Part shown: piece after piece, positions 3,490-61,658 of the stretch | How the letters are laid out: each line of letters opens with the position of its first letter | How positions within the stretch are numbered: position 1 is the first letter of the stretch | Assembly (NCBI GenBank): GCA_045641045.1 | Contig: JAZUGE010000057.1 | Coordinates: 4,259-68,258, forward strand | Direction: 5' to 3' | DNA: 64,000 nt | Origin: Treponema sp. | Lineage (GTDB): Bacteria; Spirochaetota; Spirochaetia; Treponematales; Treponemataceae | The notes under the pieces: model-generated | The model's input: only the letters and a program-made list of their open reading frames with translations | Databases searched by the model: none | What the model was told of the DNA's origin: nothing | Program-made: the position numbers and the translations under genes

Positions 3490-4857
3490 TTATTTTTCAA
3501 GTCTAACTCGTGCAGCTCTTGCGTGTCCTGCAAGACCTTCTGCATCACCTAAATGTCCAGCTGCTTCTGCACTGGCAACTGCACCCTTTGAGCCTTCGAT
3601 TGTTCGTAAAGTTGTAACTGTCTTTAAGAATACACGAACACTTAAGCCTCCGGTAAACCTTGCACTACCACTTGTAGGCAGTGTGTGATTTAACCCTGCT
3701 GCGTAGTCTCCAAATACTTCGGCACTTCCATGTCCAATAAAAAGAGAACCATAATTGTGTACAAGACTGCAGGCCTTATCTCTTTCACTGCCTTGAGCCA
3801 TAGCAAGCTCAAGGTGTTCAGGAGCTTTTCGGTTTGCAGCTTCACATGCCTGTTCTATTGTATCAGTAATAATTATACGACCACAGTTCTTTATACTTTC
3901 AGCTGCTGTTGACCGTGTACTTAAAGTTTCAAGCTGACTTTCAATCTCTAAAGCAACCTTTTGGGCAAGCTCCATATCACAGGTAGCCAATACAGGCTGT
4001 GCTACAACATCATGTTCAGCCTGTGCTAAAAGGTCAGCTGCAACCCACTTTGGATTTGCAGTTGAGTCAGCAATAATAAATACTTCAGTAGGACCTGCAA
4101 CCATATCAATGCCTACTGTTCCGTACACAAGTTTTTTAGCCTCAGCAACAAACTTGTTGCCAGGACCTACAATAACATCTACTGCCGGTATACTTTCAGT
4201 ACCAAAAGCCATAGCACCAATTGCCTGAGCACCACCACAGGCAAATACCTTTGTAGCTCCACAAATATATGCTGCAGCCATGATATTTTGATCTGCATAT
4301 GGCTTACCGCCAACAAAAGGTTTACCACTGACTCCAAGCCCTTCACTCTCTGCTGAAGACAAATCGTCAGGATGCACTCTTGGTGGAGTACATAGAATTA
4401 CTTCTTTTACACCTGCGGCAACTGCAGGAACAACAGTCATTACAACAGTTGATACTAAAGGAAATCTTCCGGCAGGAACATAAACACCAGCTTTTTCGAC
4501 ACTGATATTTTTTTGACCTGTAAAAACACCTTCTTCAAGTTCAACTTCAAAATCATCAAACGACTCACGCTGTTTTTTTGCAAAACGCAGCGCAAGGTCT
4601 GCACTGTATTTTAACGATTTGTAAAGGTCAGGATTTTCGAGCTGCATTTTTTCGGCAGCGGCTTTAAGTTCATGATGAGGTATTTCAAAAGTAACTGGGC
4701 TTGATATATCAAATCTAGCACCATATTCTTTAAGGGCTGCATCCCCATTTGTTTTAACATTTGTTAAAACATCGTTTACGGTTTCAATAGAACCGCCAAA
4801 GTCTCTTCCGTTAAAGAAAGAGTTTTCGATTTCTGAATACTTTTGAATTTTTATCAT
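3490..4857 (-). CDS. hisD: Histidinol dehydrogenase
   Basis: GVYVPAG, IVGPGNKFVAEAK, IDMVAGPTEV, DLLAQAEHD, APEHLEL, GDYAAGLNHTLPT motifs. Confidence 0.97.
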   Translation of the reverse strand: MIKIQKYSEIENSFFNGRDFGGSIETVNDVLTNVKTNGDAALKEYGARFDISSPVTFEIPHHELKAAAEKMQLENPDLYKSLKYSADLALRFAKKQRESFDDFEVELEEGVFTGQKNISVEKAGVYVPAGRFPLVSTVVMTVVPAVAAGVKEVILCTPPRVHPDDLSSAESEGLGVSGKPFVGGKPYADQNIMAAAYICGATKVFACGGAQAIGAMAFGTESIPAVDVIVGPGNKFVAEAKKLVYGTVGIDMVAGPTEVFIIADSTANPKWVAADLLAQAEHDVVAQPVLATCDMELAQKVALEIESQLETLSTRSTAAESIKNCGRIIITDTIEQACEAANRKAPEHLELAMAQGSERDKACSLVHNYGSLFIGHGSAEVFGDYAAGLNHTLPTSGSARFTGGLSVRVFLKTVTTLRTIEGSKGAVASAEAAGHLGDAEGLAGHARAARVRLEK

Positions 4858-53719: not shown

Positions 53720-54490
53720 TTACTTTCGACACTCATACATAATTATTGCTGCAGCCTGAGCAACATTTAAACTCTCGATTGGCTGCTTAATGTTACTATC
53801 TAAGCTATCTGTAAAAGGAATTATGATTAAATCATCACAATTTTCTTTTACTTCGTTCGAAATACCATGCTCTTCGTTACCCAAAACGATCAACAAAGGC
53901 TTAGACTTCTTCATCGTATGAATAGCACTGATTGGTGTTTTTGCATGCACATCAGTTCCAAGTCTGATCATTTTACCTTCCATTGAAGACAAAAGCTTTG
54001 TAATTGAGCGTATAGAATAGATATTTACGTATTCCATTCCACCTTGTGCAACTCTATATGAACTCGTAGTTATTGAACTTTGAGCTTCATCTAATGGGAT
54101 TACAACATTTTTAAAACCAAAAAATGCAGCACTTCGAACAATTGCACCAAGATTATTTGCATTTCCAACTCGATCAAGTAATAAAGCTGATTCACCATTA
54201 TGGAGCCACTGATCTGTAATATCCACAGTTAACGGCTCAATCTCAGGCTGCTCAATCATAGCAACAATACCCTGATGATGTATACTTCCGCACAGTTTCT
54301 CAAGTTCTGCAGGTTCAACTTTGTTATAAGGAGCTTTGCGTTTTGCAAGTGTACGACACAAATCACCAAGACTCATCATACGATCTTGTGTAAAGTATAA
54401 GCGAGTAATTTTTTCTACATTATTCTTTGCAAGAGCCATAACAGCTTCGTAACCACAAACAGCAAGTTCGTTCTTATATTTGTTTTTCAT
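53720..54490 (-). CDS. TrmH/SpoU-family RNA 2'-O-methyltransferase
   Basis: NNLGAIVRSA, LGNEEHG and ESLNVAQA SPOUT motifs. Confidence 0.9.
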   Translation of the reverse strand: MKNKYKNELAVCGYEAVMALAKNNVEKITRLYFTQDRMMSLGDLCRTLAKRKAPYNKVEPAELEKLCGSIHHQGIVAMIEQPEIEPLTVDITDQWLHNGESALLLDRVGNANNLGAIVRSAAFFGFKNVVIPLDEAQSSITTSSYRVAQGGMEYVNIYSIRSITKLLSSMEGKMIRLGTDVHAKTPISAIHTMKKSKPLLIVLGNEEHGISNEVKENCDDLIIIPFTDSLDSNIKQPIESLNVAQAAAIIMYECRK

Positions 54491-54496
54491 GCATTA

Positions 54497-54525
54497 AATA
54501 TAACGGCAATAATGGTACATGTCCA
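54497..54525 (-). promoter_or_regulatory. Sigma70-type promoter, probably leaderless (TrmH gene)
   Basis: Minus strand TGGACA-N17-TATATT-N6-ATG; no SD. Confidence 0.7.
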
Positions 54526-54556
54526 TACATCATTTAATAACAAAAGGTTATCAAAC

Positions 54557-54704
54557 TGTTTATAACTTGTTAAATTTTGTGGATAACTCTGTGGAAACTG
54601 TGTATAAATATTGTTAAATTCTTCAAAGTTATCCACATTTTCCACACTTTTTAAACATTTTTTTGTGGATAACTTTACAAATTCTGTGGATAACATTATT
54701 AACA
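54557..54704. promoter_or_regulatory. DnaA-box cluster
   Basis: Perfect TTATCCACA or its reverse complement at 54578, 54629, 54664 and 54685. Consensus TTWTNCACA at 54599 and 54638. One-mismatch boxes at 54557, 54590, 54649 and 54696. Confidence 0.9.
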
Positions 54705-54714
54705 CGTTTAAAAT

Positions 54715-54753
54715 AAAAAACGTCCAGTTAAAATAAATTCAACCAGACGTTTT
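54715..54753 (-). terminator. Intrinsic terminator after the ABC solute-binding protein gene
   Basis: Minus strand AAAACGTCTGGTT...AACTGGACGTTTTTT. Confidence 0.7.
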
Positions 54754-54790
54754 CAACAATTAAATTAGGATAAAACTAATCTAAGTTATT

Positions 54791-56365
54791 TTATTTAATA
54801 AGGCGAGCATCCTTAGCAAGCTGAACACCTTCAGCTTCCCATGCAGCACCACCGAGCTTATCAAAGTCAGCAACAAATGCCTTCCAGTTAGCTGGTGTAA
54901 GTTCACGCTTACCTGTCATAAATTCTGCGATACCCTGTTCGTAGAATCTCTTAAGGTCAGCACTTGGGTTAGGCATCTTATCCTGACCTACACATGCTGT
55001 CCATGGCTTAGACTGCATTTCACGGAGAGCTACGAGAGCTGACATCTTCTTTCCAGAAGGTGTTGTGTATGTTGGATAGCGAGAAGCTAATTCAACATCA
55101 CCGTTGAAGTATACCATGTTACGGAGCTGTGTTAATGGCTGGTTTTCAGACTTAGAGTAAGCCTTTGATGGATCTGCAAGACCATCAGCTACAGGAACAC
55201 CCTGAGCGTTCTTTACGTAGTTGATTCCTTCCTGACCCCAACCACAGAGGTAGTAACCTTCATCTGAGCTCATCCATTCAAGGAGACGGCAGATAGCATC
55301 TTTCTTACCAGCTTTTTCTGCCTTAGCAGATACAGCATACATACGGTAAGCCTGTGAGTATGTACCACATGATGCATTACCCTTTGGACCCTTTGGAGGG
55401 TTAGCAATGATGAAAGAACCATTAGGGAAGTTCTTATCAAATGGACCGTAGTTTGATTCAGCTGCATAAGCAGCATTCTGTTCACGGAAAATACCAAAAC
55501 GACCCTGCTTCCATGAAGCACGGAAGTCATCTTTCTTATATGCGAGCCAGTTTGGATCGATAACCTTTGCATCGATAAGCTTCTTCATATAAACCATTGC
55601 ATCATAGTATTCTGGCTTGTGGATGTTAAGACCAGCTGTCTTAACTGAAGAAAGGTTCCATGTACCAGCTACACCAAATGCACCGAAGATTGGATCAAAG
55701 CGGCGACCAAGACCTTCGTTTGGACCTGAAAGTTCAAGGTATCCACCATAACCGTATGTATCATCTTTTCCGTTTCCATCAGGATCTTTGAAAGTAAATG
55801 CTTTCATTACTTCAAAGTAATCATCTGTTGTTACAGGAACAGCGAGACCGAGCTTATCAAGCCAGTCTTTGCGGATTAATACACCTTCGTTACGAACGAT
55901 TGAACCTGGCTGAGCAAGTGCGTATGAATGACCGTCTGTATGTGTTGTAAATGCAATTGAATCCTTATCATAAAGCTTTGCTGTACGATTTGGCATCTTT
56001 GCATACATATCATCAACACGAGCCAAAAGCTTCTGCTTGATGAGCATTGTGTATGTGTTGCTTGAAATCATGAAAAGATCAGGAAGAGCATTAGCTGCAC
56101 CTGCAGCGTTGATCTTTGTATCCTGGTCTGTTTCGCTTGATGGGAGAGCTGATAACTTAAGGTTGATCTTAAGCTTATCTCTGATAATCTGGTATCCAAC
56201 CCAGTCAGCTGGGATTGGACCTGCTTCTGTTACAGCTGCACCGTACCAAAGTTCGAGGTCAGTTGTACCGTCTTTGTTTGTTTTTGCTTTTGGAGCAGCA
56301 AATGAAGGTGCTGCTACGCTAAGAACTACAGCTGCTAAAGCGAGGTTCTTAAATAAGTTATTCAT
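54791..56365 (-). CDS. Carbohydrate ABC transporter extracellular solute-binding protein (LplA/YtcQ-like)
   Basis: Signal peptide; LIRKDWLDKLGLAVPVTTDDY..VMKAF..KDPDGNGKDDTYG signature. Confidence 0.9.
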   Translation of the reverse strand: MNNLFKNLALAAVVLSVAAPSFAAPKAKTNKDGTTDLELWYGAAVTEAGPIPADWVGYQIIRDKLKINLKLSALPSSETDQDTKINAAGAANALPDLFMISSNTYTMLIKQKLLARVDDMYAKMPNRTAKLYDKDSIAFTTHTDGHSYALAQPGSIVRNEGVLIRKDWLDKLGLAVPVTTDDYFEVMKAFTFKDPDGNGKDDTYGYGGYLELSGPNEGLGRRFDPIFGAFGVAGTWNLSSVKTAGLNIHKPEYYDAMVYMKKLIDAKVIDPNWLAYKKDDFRASWKQGRFGIFREQNAAYAAESNYGPFDKNFPNGSFIIANPPKGPKGNASCGTYSQAYRMYAVSAKAEKAGKKDAICRLLEWMSSDEGYYLCGWGQEGINYVKNAQGVPVADGLADPSKAYSKSENQPLTQLRNMVYFNGDVELASRYPTYTTPSGKKMSALVALREMQSKPWTACVGQDKMPNPSADLKRFYEQGIAEFMTGKRELTPANWKAFVADFDKLGGAAWEAEGVQLAKDARLIK

Positions 56366-56443
56366 TATTTCCTCCTTTTTAGAAATCTATAATAACCATT
56401 TTGTTTTTTGCTCCGTAAAAAAAAATTTTTACAAGCTTTTAAC

Positions 56444-56492
56444 ATTATATCATAAAAAAATGGTCAGGCATAACAATATTTTATACCTGACC
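56444..56492 (-). terminator. Terminator-like hairpin after the permeases, overlapping an extended -10 element for the binding-protein gene
   Basis: Minus strand GGTCAGGTATAA/TTATGCCTGACC plus ATTTTTTT, immediately followed by TGATATAAT (56452-56444). Confidence 0.6.
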
Positions 56493-56517
56493 GTTTAATT
56501 TTAGTATAAAAGTGTCA

Positions 56518-57408
56518 TTAACCCTTTACTGAACCCAGCATAGTACCCTTTGTGAAGTACTTCTGGATAAATGGATATGCTATCATCATAGGAATAGCTG
56601 ACATAAATACTGATGCAGCTTTAATAGCCTGAACAGGAGCATTACCAAAAGCATTTACTTCAACGTATTCGTTCATACCGCTTGCCATAAGAATGTTGCG
56701 GAGAAGGATAGGAAGAGGGTTAAGGTCTGCTTCATTTAAGTAAAGCATAGCGTGCATAAAGTCATTCCAGAAGTTAACTGCATAGTAAAGACCAATTGTC
56801 ATGATAATTGGCTTTGACAATGGAAGAATGATTGAAAGAAGAACGTACCACTCTGCTGCACCATCGATACGAGCTGATTCTTTAAGTGATTCAGGAATAC
56901 CTTCAAAGAATCCGCGCATAATCAAACAGTTATATGTACCAATTGCACCTGGCATAAAGATTGCTGCAAGGTGGTTAGTCATATGAAGATTTGTAATAAC
57001 AAGGTATGTTGGTATCAAACCGATGTTAAACAAATAAGGAATGATTACAAAGTAATTTAAAATCTTACGTCCTGGTAAATCATGTACAGACATACAGTAG
57101 GCCATTGGAACTGTAAGGAACAAAGCTGTGATAACACCAAATGACATAATCTTCATTGAGTTCCAGAAAGCCATAATAAAGCCGTTGTTGCCTAACAGTG
57201 CAACATAAGCATCCTTACGCCATTTCCATACAGGGAGGAACATTGATTCAAGATTTGAACCAATAAAGTCATTTGGACGTACAGACTGAGTGATTGTTGA
57301 CCACATTGGGATTGCAATTGCAAGTCCGATAAAAATAAGGAACAGGTTAACACAAATATAGAATGTTCTATCACCTGCTGTGAGTTTTACTGTCTTTGGT
57401 TTTTCCAT
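56518..57408 (-). CDS. Carbohydrate ABC transporter permease (LplC/YtcP-like)
   Basis: EAA-like loop IPESLKESARIDGA, FWNDF, PFIQKYFTKG...GSVKG. Confidence 0.92.
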   Translation of the reverse strand: MEKPKTVKLTAGDRTFYICVNLFLIFIGLAIAIPMWSTITQSVRPNDFIGSNLESMFLPVWKWRKDAYVALLGNNGFIMAFWNSMKIMSFGVITALFLTVPMAYCMSVHDLPGRKILNYFVIIPYLFNIGLIPTYLVITNLHMTNHLAAIFMPGAIGTYNCLIMRGFFEGIPESLKESARIDGAAEWYVLLSIILPLSKPIIMTIGLYYAVNFWNDFMHAMLYLNEADLNPLPILLRNILMASGMNEYVEVNAFGNAPVQAIKAASVFMSAIPMMIAYPFIQKYFTKGTMLGSVKG

Positions 57409-57425
57409 ATCGTTATTTCCTTATA

Positions 57426-58367
57426 CTACAGTAATGATGATTCTGTAATCTTCTTAACAACCTTGTTTGAAATCATAACAAGGAGCATACCAATGATACC
57501 CTTAAAGATACCTACTGCAGTTGCAAGAGCAAATTCAAACTGAAGAAGACCCTGACGGTAAACCCATGTATCAATAATATCTGCTACTGAGTAAACTGGA
57601 ACAGAGTACAACATGAACATCTGGTTGAAACCAGCATCAAGTACAGTACCGAGCTTAAGAAGTACTACAGTTACGATTACAGGCTTAATTGAAGGGATTG
57701 TAATGTACCATACACGCTGTACAGCAGAAGCACCTTCAACCATAGCTGCTTCAAAGAGTGAAGGGTCAATACCCATTAATGCAGCGATAAAGATGATAGC
57801 TGCCCAACCCATTTCCTTCCATGCATCAGAAATTACAACTACTGCAGGGAAAGTTCCTGTATTTGTAAGGAAGTCAATTGGTTCACCACCACAGAACTTA
57901 ATAAGATCATTCAAAATACCATCACCAGGAGCTAAAAGTACAAGAAGAATACCGTACATAATTACCCATGAAAGGAAGTGTGGTAAATATACAAGTGTCT
58001 GAACAACTCTGCGGAGAATGTCACGAGTACATTCGTAAAGAGCTACAGACAAAATAATTGAAAGTGGTACACAGATACAAAGCTTTGCTAAAGAATAAAG
58101 AATTGTATTGCGAAGAAGTTCACCAAAATAGAATGAATGGAAAAAATTTGAAAAGTTTTTGAATCCAATCCACTGGCTGCCCCATACACCATCAACAGCA
58201 GCAAAATCTTTAAATGCAATCTGACCGTTTACGATTGGACCATACTTCATTATAGCATAGTACACAACTGGTATTGCGAGCAGTGCATAAACAGAAAAAT
58301 GTCTCTTAATATCCTTCCAAAGATCTTTCTTTGGAGCGGTAAGAACAGTTGTTTCTTGTGCGTTCAT
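57426..58367 (-). CDS. Carbohydrate ABC transporter permease (LplB/YteP-like)
   Basis: WIGFKNF, YLPHFLSWV, WKEMGW, IDPSLFEAAMVEGA, DIIDTWVY..GL. Start moved to ATG 58367, after GAGG. Confidence 0.92.
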   Translation of the reverse strand: MNAQETTVLTAPKKDLWKDIKRHFSVYALLAIPVVYYAIMKYGPIVNGQIAFKDFAAVDGVWGSQWIGFKNFSNFFHSFYFGELLRNTILYSLAKLCICVPLSIILSVALYECTRDILRRVVQTLVYLPHFLSWVIMYGILLVLLAPGDGILNDLIKFCGGEPIDFLTNTGTFPAVVVISDAWKEMGWAAIIFIAALMGIDPSLFEAAMVEGASAVQRVWYITIPSIKPVIVTVVLLKLGTVLDAGFNQMFMLYSVPVYSVADIIDTWVYRQGLLQFEFALATAVGIFKGIIGMLLVMISNKVVKKITESSLL

Positions 58368-58445
58368 TTCTAACCTCAGTTTACACATATTAGCAATTTG
58401 TCTTAAAAATTTACTTGTATCTTATTGGACAATACCGTCATAAAT

Positions 58446-61400
58446 CTATTGTTTCTGACGAATCTTTCCTGGTGGTACACCGTAAATCTTCTTGAATACA
58501 CGGCAAAAGTATGCCTGATCCTGAAAACCTGAATTCTCAGCAATCTCATATATAGTGGCATTTGTTTCCAAAAGCATTTTTGTAGCCAGATATATACGAT
58601 ATCTGTTGAGATACTCCCATAGTGACAATCCGATTTCCTTATGAAAGATACGTGTAAGATAGTCTTCACTAACATGTACTGTATCTGCCAGTTTCCATCG
58701 TACAATCTGCTGGGAAGCATTTTTATTCAAATACAAAATGGCTTTTTTTACCAGCGCTCCCGTGTGAGGAGGTAGTATTTCATCACCATTTAATATTGCA
58801 TGAACACGATCATTAAACTGATCCGACTCAGCAGCACCTCTGTTACACAGGATAATGCGTGGATGAGAGCAAAGCAGTTCAACCTGTTCTTCTGACAAAA
58901 TTGTGTCCGGAAGAACTATAATCGGAACAAGAACAGTTTTATTGTTCTGTCTTATTTTCTTTATGCTCGCTTCGTCAATTGTTTCAAAAACAATGAGAGA
59001 AGGCTTTATTTCACTCAATATGCGGTCAAAATCTTCCATTGAAGGAATACTAACGCTGTTACTGTCAGTTGCCCACGTGCCGTACCGGGTATGCTTTGCA
59101 TTAACAAATAAAACCGGTGCAGACTTTTGTGTTCTAACCTTTTGTTCAAGCATCTCAACAAAACTATGCCCAACAAGATTATGGCTATAACAAATAACAG
59201 GTGAACGGAATAAGTTTTCATAATGTCTCAGGCTATATACTTTAATCCATTCATCAATAGGAGCTTCATCAGGCTCCCAGTACAAAAGATTTGCACTTTC
59301 AGGAGTTGTATCCTCCAGCATTTCTTTTGTAACCTGACTAACATCCATATGAAAAATCTGTTCATTTTGTGCTTTACCTGACAAGCTGTACACCCTGCTG
59401 ATTTTATTTACAGGCTTTACAGGTGGCATACCAGAAAGATTAGGCCATGGTAATATTATTGTAGCAGATGTTTCAGATTTAACAACTGTACCGTACTGCA
59501 ATAATATGATTTTTTCAGCCAGCAAAAGCTCAGCTTTTGTCCAGTCCAGATTTGAAGATTCAATATATATCTCAAGACCATCAACTTCAGCAGTTACGGA
59601 CATCACAGTCCCTGTATATTCAAATATTGTCTGAAGAGCTTTTTTAAGACGGTCTGGATCTCCGTATAAAAGAGGCAAATCTGTATCTATTGCTGCAACT
59701 GCACTGCCTGGCAATACCTGACGGATATCAAAAAGCTTTTTATCCATAGGCAGATCATCAACCTGAGATCTTGTTAAATCAACAAGAGTTTCAGTTTTTT
59801 CCAACTGGGCTTCAATCTGACTCTTTAAAAATATCAACTGCTCACTAAGAATATCCTGATCAAGAATTCCCTTATCAACATTAAGCTCCATTTGAGTTAC
59901 TTTCGAAGATAAGTCTTTGAGTGGATCACAAAGGTCACTGCCGACATTTGCAAAAAACTCAGTCTTTGCAAACTCAGCCTGCTCAGCAATACGTTTTGCA
60001 TTTGTAGTCTCTTCAAAAAGGAAAATACTCTGCAATGTAGAACTTATTGTCGAACGCAGGTCCTCATATATACTTCCATCACAGTCTGAGTAACCACAGA
60101 TTACATATCCTAGCGGCTGATTTTCCATAAATAATGGCTGAACAACGAATGTACCGACATTAAATTTTTCAGCCTGTTTCGCAGGCACTAAAAGTTTTGC
60201 AGGAAAAAGAACTTCTTCATTATTCAAAATTCCTGCATCATCAAAACCACCAACAAATCTTGAAAAGCTGTCATTTTCATACAAAACAACAGAAACACTT
60301 CGTATACCTATAGTTGGTAAATGAATAGACAGTTTTTTTATAAGACTTTCACGGTCATGAACGCTCAATAAATCGCTTTTAAGTGCACTCATAATACTGC
60401 TGATATATTTATTGTCATTAAACTTTGATGCACTTACACGGCCCTGAATCTGTGAAATCATAATATTGATTGTACGTATTACTTTACTTACGTACTCTCT
60501 GGACAGGCTGTTTGATGATCGTAAAATACTTATAGCAGTAAAAAGACGTGTCAGCTCATAATCTTTATTAAAATATATATTGAGATAGTTACTTAATAAA
60601 TTGAATAAAGTTGCCTGGTCATTTTCAAATAATGCATCTAAAAGCCCTTCAATAATATTTTCAATGTTATCGCTATAACATCTGAACTGATCTACAAGTT
60701 CCTGTGTTATTTCATTACGTGAACGTGAAAAAACCTTTGGCTCTGGGGATGATACCCATGACTTAAGATTGTTACAGCCACAGCTTTCACGTACAACAGA
60801 GTATGCAGCTAACGAAATATCCTGAACACTCCTAGTACCACAATAAACCTGGTTTATCTGGTTATAGGCTTCCAGACCAAGCTCTTCATATGGCATATGC
60901 ACAGTAGACAGCGGTGAGTTAAATACATGACATTCAACACTGTCATTAAAACCAGATACAAGTAAATCACGGGGAACCTTAAAACCACGCTGCTCCAGCC
61001 ATTTTACAGCACTAAATGACATCATATCACTACAGCACACAAGAGCATCAAAATCTGTTCCAGGAACTAACCCTCTGTCTTCGTATAGCTCTCTTATAGC
61101 AGCTTCACCGTTACTCCAGCTTACATTTGTACTGACAAGCTTTAATACATCATCACTATAAAGTCCAGACTCTTTTAAAGCATCAAGATAAGCTTTAAAA
61201 CGCTCCTCGGCAGAAGAGTGGTTTAGGGGACCTCTGATAAAAGCTATTTTTTTACACCCATGCACTTTTATAAAATGCTGAACAAGCTCTTTCATGCCTG
61301 TATATGCATCAAAGTTTACACATGGATAATTTTTTATTTTCTGTCCTATTGTTACAAAAGGGATATCACTAAACGTATCGTGAAAACGTTCAAGTTCTTC

Positions 61401-61658
61401 GGCAGTTACAGAACCACCTATACTCGAAGCCCAGCTGATAACACCATCAAGATTTTGAGAATTAGCCAGTGAGTATACACTGTTTCTCAAATACTCAGAT
61501 CCTTTCTGATTATCTAAACGTCCACCAGGAAAAATAAAAAATGCTCCGCTTTGCCTTGATGCATGCGCAGCAAGATTAAGCCAAAGCTTTAAAGAAGATC
61601 CTGTGTGTATTGATGCCAGAATAAATCCGGTTTTTTTACCAGTATGATTTGATTTCAT
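58446..61658 (-). CDS. Cytoplasmic hybrid regulator: LacI-type sugar-binding domain + degenerate His kinase + degenerate receivers + AraC HTH
   Basis: IAFIRGP..H..AEERF.AY, ALVCCSDMM, VPRDLLVSGFND, VVRESCGC (LacI-type sensor); KTEFFANVGSDLCDPL (H-box without His); C-terminal SEDYLTRIF...GFQDQAYFCRVFKK (AraC). Confidence 0.85.
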   Translation of the reverse strand: MKSNHTGKKTGFILASIHTGSSLKLWLNLAAHASRQSGAFFIFPGGRLDNQKGSEYLRNSVYSLANSQNLDGVISWASSIGGSVTAEELERFHDTFSDIPFVTIGQKIKNYPCVNFDAYTGMKELVQHFIKVHGCKKIAFIRGPLNHSSAEERFKAYLDALKESGLYSDDVLKLVSTNVSWSNGEAAIRELYEDRGLVPGTDFDALVCCSDMMSFSAVKWLEQRGFKVPRDLLVSGFNDSVECHVFNSPLSTVHMPYEELGLEAYNQINQVYCGTRSVQDISLAAYSVVRESCGCNNLKSWVSSPEPKVFSRSRNEITQELVDQFRCYSDNIENIIEGLLDALFENDQATLFNLLSNYLNIYFNKDYELTRLFTAISILRSSNSLSREYVSKVIRTINIMISQIQGRVSASKFNDNKYISSIMSALKSDLLSVHDRESLIKKLSIHLPTIGIRSVSVVLYENDSFSRFVGGFDDAGILNNEEVLFPAKLLVPAKQAEKFNVGTFVVQPLFMENQPLGYVICGYSDCDGSIYEDLRSTISSTLQSIFLFEETTNAKRIAEQAEFAKTEFFANVGSDLCDPLKDLSSKVTQMELNVDKGILDQDILSEQLIFLKSQIEAQLEKTETLVDLTRSQVDDLPMDKKLFDIRQVLPGSAVAAIDTDLPLLYGDPDRLKKALQTIFEYTGTVMSVTAEVDGLEIYIESSNLDWTKAELLLAEKIILLQYGTVVKSETSATIILPWPNLSGMPPVKPVNKISRVYSLSGKAQNEQIFHMDVSQVTKEMLEDTTPESANLLYWEPDEAPIDEWIKVYSLRHYENLFRSPVICYSHNLVGHSFVEMLEQKVRTQKSAPVLFVNAKHTRYGTWATDSNSVSIPSMEDFDRILSEIKPSLIVFETIDEASIKKIRQNNKTVLVPIIVLPDTILSEEQVELLCSHPRIILCNRGAAESDQFNDRVHAILNGDEILPPHTGALVKKAILYLNKNASQQIVRWKLADTVHVSEDYLTRIFHKEIGLSLWEYLNRYRIYLATKMLLETNATIYEIAENSGFQDQAYFCRVFKKIYGVPPGKIRQKQ

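Follow-up and report, generated by a model that had tools for sequence, protein, structure and literature searches.

A dense DnaA-box cluster outside oriC in a Treponema genome: a probable DnaA-binding locus of the Bacillus subtilis DBC type

Does a dense group of DnaA boxes in an intergenic spacer mark a replication origin, or does it bind DnaA for another purpose? The question is raised by a 148-bp segment (54557–54704) of a 64-kb stretch of DNA, further referred to as the window, which corresponds to positions 4259–68258 of contig C57 in a 2.83-Mb draft Treponema genome of 70 contigs. The nearest named relatives are the gut and rumen species T. berlinense, T. saccharophilum, T. zioleckii and T. 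bryantii. To our knowledge, hardly any work has addressed how spirochetes control replication initiation; they lack the SeqA and Hda systems of Escherichia coli. A search of the accessible literature for DnaA-box clusters in Treponema found no paper.

The box array and the adjacent promoter

The spacer was scanned with the relaxed consensus TTWTNCACA over positions 54540–54720. Ten sites were found within 54557–54704: four perfect TTATCCACA boxes, two relaxed-consensus boxes, and four sites one mismatch off the relaxed consensus. This reproduced exactly the original prediction of about ten boxes in 148 bp in both orientations. The coordinates are listed in Table 1. The boxes with the TCCACA/ACACA core number seven, including the four perfect ones, and span 116 bp. 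R6 is probably a real box because it abuts the real box R5, and the three A/T-only near-matches are probably chance matches, given that their substitutions are only to A or T. Read along the minus strand, the terminator is followed by two perfect boxes in direct orientation, 21 bp from each other, then by an inverted pair of adjoining boxes, a group of three direct boxes, 88 bp, and the start codon.

Table 1. Features of the cluster and its flanks, in window coordinates.
Feature	Position	Strand	Description
SpoU/TrmH-family RNA 2'-O-methyltransferase, RlmB-like	53720..54490	-	PF00588, PF08032; downstream of the cluster
Methylase promoter	54497..54525	-	-35 TGGACA (54525-54520), 17-nt spacer, -10 TATATT (54502-54497); sigma-70-type
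Weak site	54557..54565	-	TTATAAACA, A/T-only near-match
DnaA box R7	54578..54586	-	Perfect TTATCCACA; nearest promoter, 88-96 bp before start codon
DnaA box R6	54590..54598	-	GTTTCCACA, two mismatches, TCCACA core kept; abuts R5
DnaA box R5	54599..54607	-	TTATACACA, one mismatch, fits TTWTNCACA
DnaA box R4	54629..54637	+	Perfect TTATCCACA; orientation opposite to R1 and R2
DnaA box R3	54638..54646	+	TTTTCCACA, one mismatch, fits TTWTNCACA; abuts R4
Weak site	54649..54657	+	TTTTAAACA, A/T-only near-match
DnaA box R2	54664..54672	-	Perfect TTATCCACA; orientation as R1, 21 bp (two helical turns) from R1
DnaA box R1	54685..54693	-	Perfect TTATCCACA; first after terminator; points toward methylase gene
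Weak site	54696..54704	+	TTATTAACA, A/T-only near-match
Intrinsic terminator	54716..54754	-	3' of SBP gene; separates cluster from upstream transcription
ABC-transporter solute-binding protein (SBP)	54791..56365	-	Upstream of the cluster

No perfect box other than these four occurs in the 64-kb window. Genome-wide, 45 perfect boxes were observed vs 35 expected from composition, and the expected number of four-box clusters within 116 bp is about 5e-8. When each perfect box is scored 2 and each one-mismatch box 1 over a 300-bp span, the array at 54557–54704 is the densest DnaA-box cluster of the genome (10 vs 5 for the runner-up). The G+C content of the spacer is 25%. The four perfect 9-mers occur in both orientations and outside any longer repeat, and the cluster fragment has no other match in its own genome. 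The Rfam search at the cluster yielded no family reaching the threshold, and a 72-aa ORF overlapping the cluster is not conserved.

On sequence grounds, TTATCCACA is the predicted cognate high-affinity DnaA site in the genus, because domain IV of DnaA aligns to the E. coli DnaA-box complex (1J1V) with the PRQ and DHTT..H motifs kept, and because the origin of T. saccharophilum uses this form (five perfect TTATCCACA boxes). Origins of the genus otherwise carry 0–4 near-consensus boxes. Given these low counts, the array is predicted to be the highest-affinity DnaA-binding site on the chromosome, closer to the consensus than oriC boxes of its own genus.

The setting agrees with the original description, which placed the boxes between the TrmH promoter and an ABC-transporter terminator: both elements were found there. 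Terminator hairpins equivalent to the one in Table 1 are seen in the spacers of relatives. The score of the methylase against TIGR00186 (128.9 bits) is under the equivalog cut-off of 160. Its −10 box ends 6 nt before the ATG. In a sample of 80 species-level relatives carrying the methylase gene, a TANNNT motif ends 4–10 nt (mostly 6) before the ATG in 67, and a motif resembling a Shine–Dalgarno sequence occurs in just 7. Judging by these sequence patterns, the methylase mRNA is probably leaderless in this genome and across the genus, which would fix the promoter position. The strong boxes are located 53–170 bp upstream of the −35 box in the studied genome. In three relatives (L021, L030 and L033) the nearest box abuts or overlaps the −35 box, and in a fourth (L032) it abuts or overlaps the start codon; because of these arrangements, DnaA control of the methylase promoter, most simply repression, is plausible.

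The gene directly upstream of the ABC operon (58446–61658, minus strand) encodes a 1070-aa protein with LacI-type periplasmic-binding-like domains and a C-terminal AraC helix-turn-helix.

Location of the replication origin

Whole-sequence GC skew of the window was too noisy and was replaced by the skew at third codon positions (GC3), decomposed into replication (R) and transcription (T) terms. In the 30 largest contigs GC3 skew follows the replication strand, with R mostly ±0.1 to ±0.2 and T near zero; R is smaller on contigs C37 and C27. Around the cluster, the plus-strand GC3 skew equals −0.127 (p=1e-4) for 10 kb on the SBP side and −0.117 (p=7e-6) for 20 kb on the methylase side, and R is negative in every sliding window of C57. 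The computed skew thus has the same sign on both flanks, as had been judged by eye in the original prediction. Only the three ABC genes adjoining the cluster deviate (+0.11, +0.07 and −0.04), and the negative skew resumes beyond them.

These genes (SBP and two permeases; 54791–58388, minus strand) are likewise neutral or opposite in GC3 skew to their surroundings in five or six of the eight relatives with a cluster. An apparent skew switch in 8.7-kb loci of relatives was dropped, given that over 39–60 kb no sign change at the cluster was seen in four relatives. R is weaker on the SBP side in genomes G041 and G042, being near zero in G042, and equals −0.05 in G045.

The basal unwinding system, consisting of two boxes, a GC-cluster, a DnaA-trio and an AT-rich region, was defined in B. 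subtilis (PMC6669920, PMC8287927). A DnaA-trio array was taken to be at least three 3'-[G/A]AT-5' repeats no further than about 16 bp from a box, with an AT-rich unwinding tract after them. No (TA[GA])x3 run is present on either strand in 54400–54850, consistent with the initial impression of no clear trio run. Among the marks of an oriC, the segment 54557–54704 has the cluster of DnaA boxes and has neither a DnaA-trio array nor a skew switch.

The genes dnaA and dnaN, noted from the start as missing from the window, are present in single copies on contigs C34 and C4, respectively. The gene order on C34 is gyrA(−), gyrB(−), dnaA(+), and dnaN opens C4. DnaA scores 488 bits against TIGR00362 (cut-off 344). 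GC3 skew is −0.164 on C34 (p=0.001); on C4 it is positive in the first eight genes and +0.105 for the whole contig (p=0.002). Cumulative GC3 skew was computed along the chain C19, C34, C4, C42 and reversed C57, ordered by synteny. In this chain the minimum falls at the end of dnaA (the C34/C4 junction), and the curve rises from dnaN through and past the cluster. The check proposed with the original prediction, cumulative skew together with the position of dnaA, thus places the minimum at the dnaA/dnaN junction of the synteny-ordered chain, away from the cluster.

The dnaA-dnaN spacers of relatives carry the element T(T/A)TTCAACA-AATTCACAG-CCC-(YTA)x6 followed by an A/T tract, found in all 11 spacers read directly; the opposite strand reads 3'-(G/A)AT-5' six times. 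The strict pattern for the module (box, box, GCCC, (YTA)x6, AT-rich) is matched in 21 of 28 dnaA-dnaN loci, and the full module is present in this spacer in all cluster-bearing relatives examined. In the studied genome, C4 starts inside the trio element (TTACTAAATTT; TTACTAAATTTAAAATTTAG), and C34 ends about 45 bp short of the element. Therefore the trinucleotide repeat probably caused the break in the assembly, C34 and C4 are adjacent, and a gap of about 45 bp between the contigs divides oriC (C34:6789–6928 and C4:1–61; loci L001 and L002). The only four parS sites of the genome (TGTTTCACGTGAAACA and variants) are located at C34:3–508, just downstream of gyrA, at a distance of about 5 kb from dnaA, where two perfect DnaA boxes are interspersed with them (C34:1–510).

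Because the GC3 skew does not change sign at the cluster, no DnaA-trio run is found there, and the skew minimum and parS sites are at dnaA, the cluster is not oriC. The option of a relocated or split oriC, allowed for in the original prediction, is not supported: the skew minimum, the trio module and parS all belong to the gyrA-gyrB-dnaA/dnaN locus.

In two relatives, G011 and G005, parS and DnaA boxes are found at the same place as on C34 (L004:1170–1400 and L007:1370–1600), and a DnaA-box cluster is located downstream of gyrA also in T. berlinense, T. bryantii and G045. The end of C46 and the start of C47, with two perfect boxes each and fitting skew signs, were considered as the chromosomal origin and rejected, given that the trio module, parS and dnaA are on C34/C4. 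The region C46:36023–37380 contains a ParA gene, a small ribbon-helix-helix-like gene, TGTAACA-type iteron-like repeats and two perfect DnaA boxes, and may be a plasmid-type partition/iteron (origin) module; C47 begins with two perfect DnaA boxes (C47:1–215). The sole internal switch of GC3 skew from plus to minus among the large contigs (+0.14 to −0.11), at about 36.9–37.1 kb of C37, is a candidate replication terminus or dif region.

Position of the cluster relative to oriC and its conservation

Contig C57 overlaps C42 by 30 bp, and overlaps of contig ends link only C65, C57 and C42, not C4. Both C34–C4 and C42–C57 are collinear with one contig of T. berlinense ATCC BAA-909. The order on that contig is gyrA, gyrB, dnaA, dnaN, eight C4 genes, about 10 kb partly shared with the studied genome, the uxaA-like gene of C42, the genes of the right end of C57, the SBP gene and the methylase gene. 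The distance from dnaA to the methylase gene equals 30.3 kb in this strain and 48 kb in T. bryantii XBD1002, where both are on one contig. In the studied genome, the assembled pieces between dnaA and the cluster amount to at least 24 kb, plus the unassembled gap between C4 and C42. Judging by the gene order shared with T. berlinense, the cluster probably lies about 25–35 kb from oriC. Independently of synteny, the skew sign indicates that the origin is on the SBP side; therefore the methylase gene is codirectional with replication, and the cluster is on its origin-proximal side. In the cluster-bearing relative G045, the contig layout suggests that the locus may be on the other replichore.

The order of the SBP and methylase genes is kept in roughly 25 closest relatives. 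Eight of the 80 relatives carry 2–6 boxes with at most one mismatch, mostly of the R3 form TTTTCCACA, which is the most frequent form in their clusters, in an SBP-methylase spacer lengthened to 150–330 bp. The proposed check for conservation in related genomes thus revealed box clusters in the same spacer of eight other Treponema species. In the T. berlinense group the spacer is about 90 bp long and has no boxes. In four cluster-bearing relatives analysed over 39–60 kb, the spacer cluster is the sole box cluster of the region.

Alignment of the spacers fails outside the boxes, the −10 element and the terminator hairpin. Since the boxes have been retained in spacers that have otherwise diverged beyond alignment, selection appears to act on the box sites themselves. 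A DNA-level homology search in 41 related genomes yielded only short box-level matches; the matches in G011 and G005 were set aside as a different conserved element, the region of parS and DnaA boxes downstream of gyrA. On the tree of methylase proteins, all nine cluster-bearing species are in one half, including a five-species clade with 98% support. Presence of the cluster requires at least 2–4 changes on this tree, and none of 500 shuffles of the labels was as clustered.

Near-consensus boxes at oriC were counted in the dnaA-dnaN spacers of relatives (loci L088–L099 and L123–L138). The counts are 0, 0, 1, 1, 1, 1, 2 and 4 in cluster-bearing species, and 1–4, with one case of 9, in species without the cluster. 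The medians are 1 and 2, respectively (one-sided Mann–Whitney p=0.015, a statistic that ignores phylogeny).

Probable function and comparison with known systems

Clusters of DnaA boxes outside oriC (DBCs) were reportedly described in B. subtilis by Ishikawa in 2007. They are mostly oriC-proximal, some have DnaA-regulated promoters, and jointly they restrain initiation (Okumura 2012, PMC3245932). One of them, DBC[yydA-yycS], is oriC-proximal and restrains initiation most effectively; it contains the yydA promoter, which DnaA represses. Deletion of a single DBC had little effect (PMC3245932). Okumura et al. predicted such clusters for bacteria without SeqA and Hda (PMC3245932). The studied genome has one match to the DnaA family (PF00308), that is, no Hda. 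SeqA is presumably absent from this organism, judged by the known distribution of SeqA, so that the host of the Treponema cluster resembles B. subtilis in the respect relevant to the prediction. The B. subtilis gene yydA is rlmH, which encodes a SPOUT-superfamily rRNA methyltransferase.

The studied locus shares with the DBCs the presence of several consensus boxes in an intergenic region outside oriC. Its sequence suggests, with a probability of about 0.7, a DnaA-box cluster akin to the B. subtilis DBCs, near the origin but distinct from it, that serves as a DnaA sink, controls the promoter, or does both. A titration or regulatory locus and DnaA control of the methylase promoter, both suggested in the original prediction, fit the sequence evidence. 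Like the B. subtilis DBCs, the array is an intergenic cluster of consensus boxes outside oriC; synteny suggests that it is also near oriC, and like DBC[yydA-yycS], it is in the promoter region of a downstream SPOUT methyltransferase gene, here SpoU/TrmH and RlmB-like. In contrast to them, it is found in Spirochaetota, has no sequence homology with them and precedes a different member of the methyltransferase family; it is also denser, with seven boxes in 116 bp, and more consensus-like than its own oriC. DnaA binding, repression and the effect on initiation are demonstrated for the B. subtilis DBCs and are predicted for the Treponema cluster.

The proposed mechanism is as follows. At its probable distance of about 25–35 kb from oriC, and with replication forks arriving from the SBP side, the array would be copied when no more than a few per cent of a replication round is complete. 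It would hold DnaA away from the low-affinity sites of the origin, and with its capacity doubling soon after initiation, re-initiation would be damped. Occupancy of the array by DnaA may also modulate the promoter of the RlmB-like methylase, most likely by repression, because the array is 53–170 bp upstream of the −35 box and directly on it in relatives. Several points count against this reading: the nearest strong box, 53 bp upstream of the −35 box, is far for simple repression; the distribution is patchy (at least 2–4 gains or losses), the cluster being dispensable in many close relatives, such as the T. berlinense group; the distance to oriC depends on gene order in T. berlinense; the locus may be on the other replichore in G045; and in B. 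subtilis the loss of one DBC had little effect.

Several other explanations have to be weighed against the DBC-type reading. The array could be an operator only, with DnaA acting purely as a transcription factor of the leaderless methylase gene and tying ribosome maturation to replication status with no measurable effect on initiation. The box that abuts or overlaps the −35 box or the start codon in L021, L030, L032 and L033 and the retention of the cluster at this one promoter in nine species argue for this, as does the fact that DnaA regulates transcription in B. subtilis and, among spirochetes, in Borrelia burgdorferi (PMC9879097). However, seven boxes, four of them perfect, are far beyond the needs of known DnaA-regulated promoters, the strong boxes are 53–170 bp upstream of the −35 box in the studied genome, and the probable nearness to the origin is what the titration model expects. 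We consider an exclusive operator role rather unlikely; the operator and titration roles are compatible. It is still less probable, indeed very unlikely, that the array alters the nucleotide state of DnaA by ATP hydrolysis or nucleotide exchange, as datA or DARS do, with no passive titration. Tight packing in both orientations (two converging pairs, then three direct boxes) could support contacts between DnaA molecules, and another route of DnaA inactivation may be needed, given that the single PF00308 match leaves no Hda homologue. Yet no sequence similarity to datA or DARS is seen, no IHF-type site is recognisable, there being no reliable model of IHF/HU sites for Treponema, and the definition of both elements is biochemical and confined to E. 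coli and related bacteria.

A relocated, second or split chromosomal origin would agree with the highest box density in the genome, the 25% G+C of the spacer, the weakly opposite skew of the three adjacent ABC genes (+0.11, +0.07 and −0.04) and the tendency of cluster-bearing species toward fewer consensus boxes at dnaA-dnaN. Nevertheless, the skew is negative again past the ABC genes and significant on both flanks, four relatives have no sign change over 39–60 kb, the cluster has no DnaA-trio run, the full dnaA-dnaN module is kept in every cluster-bearing relative examined, and the skew minimum and parS are at dnaA. Moreover, the known bipartite origins flank dnaA, and their parts are much closer together than 30 kb. 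Taken together, this makes an origin at the cluster extremely improbable. Lack of function, that is, a chance or neutral local duplication or sites for another protein, would be compatible with the patchy distribution among relatives but can hardly be reconciled with the chance expectation of about 5e-8, with perfect 9-mers in both orientations that form no longer repeat and are part of a fragment unmatched elsewhere in the genome, and with the persistence of the boxes in nine species despite divergence of the spacer beyond alignment. The Rfam result and the non-conserved 72-aa ORF likewise offer no other identity for the segment.

In E. coli, datA is a high-affinity non-origin box cluster located fairly near oriC that restrains re-initiation. 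It is about 1 kb long, has five boxes and an essential IHF site, and stimulates hydrolysis of DnaA-ATP. The Treponema cluster is similar in being a non-origin group of predicted high-affinity DnaA boxes, probably near oriC; it differs in having no demonstrable IHF site or homology and in its tie to a promoter, to which datA is not linked in the same way. Streptomyces coelicolor, as cited in PMC3245932, has an oriC-proximal DnaA-box cluster that is a negative regulator of chromosome replication; unlike the Treponema cluster, it belongs to a high-G+C actinomycete and has a different box consensus and context. With the basal unwinding system the Treponema cluster shares clustered boxes in A/T-rich intergenic DNA, but it has no DnaA-trio array and is on a monotonic limb of the skew curve.

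Elements of this kind are already known from Bacillus, Streptomyces and E. coli, and are newly extended here to the phylum Spirochaetota. A conserved box array tens of kilobases from oriC is a candidate buffer of free DnaA in spirochetes, and the prediction derived from B. subtilis, that clusters are to be found where SeqA and Hda are absent, is extended to another phylum. The link to a probably leaderless promoter of an rRNA methylase echoes B. subtilis yydA (rlmH) and raises the possibility that DnaA status is coupled to ribosome maturation in more than one lineage. A stronger version, in which the remote cluster took over part of the high-affinity DnaA recruitment of the origin in one Treponema clade, would agree with the lower box counts at oriC of cluster-bearing species but seems quite improbable. 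If true, it would make the cluster the main DnaA depot, setting the threshold for a box-poor origin about 25–50 kb away, and would mean an evolved split between a DnaA store and an unwinding module, beyond an accessory sink. For genome annotation, origin-calling by box density would mis-call the origin of this genome; the correct origin for the gut and rumen Treponema genus is the dnaA-dnaN unwinding module.
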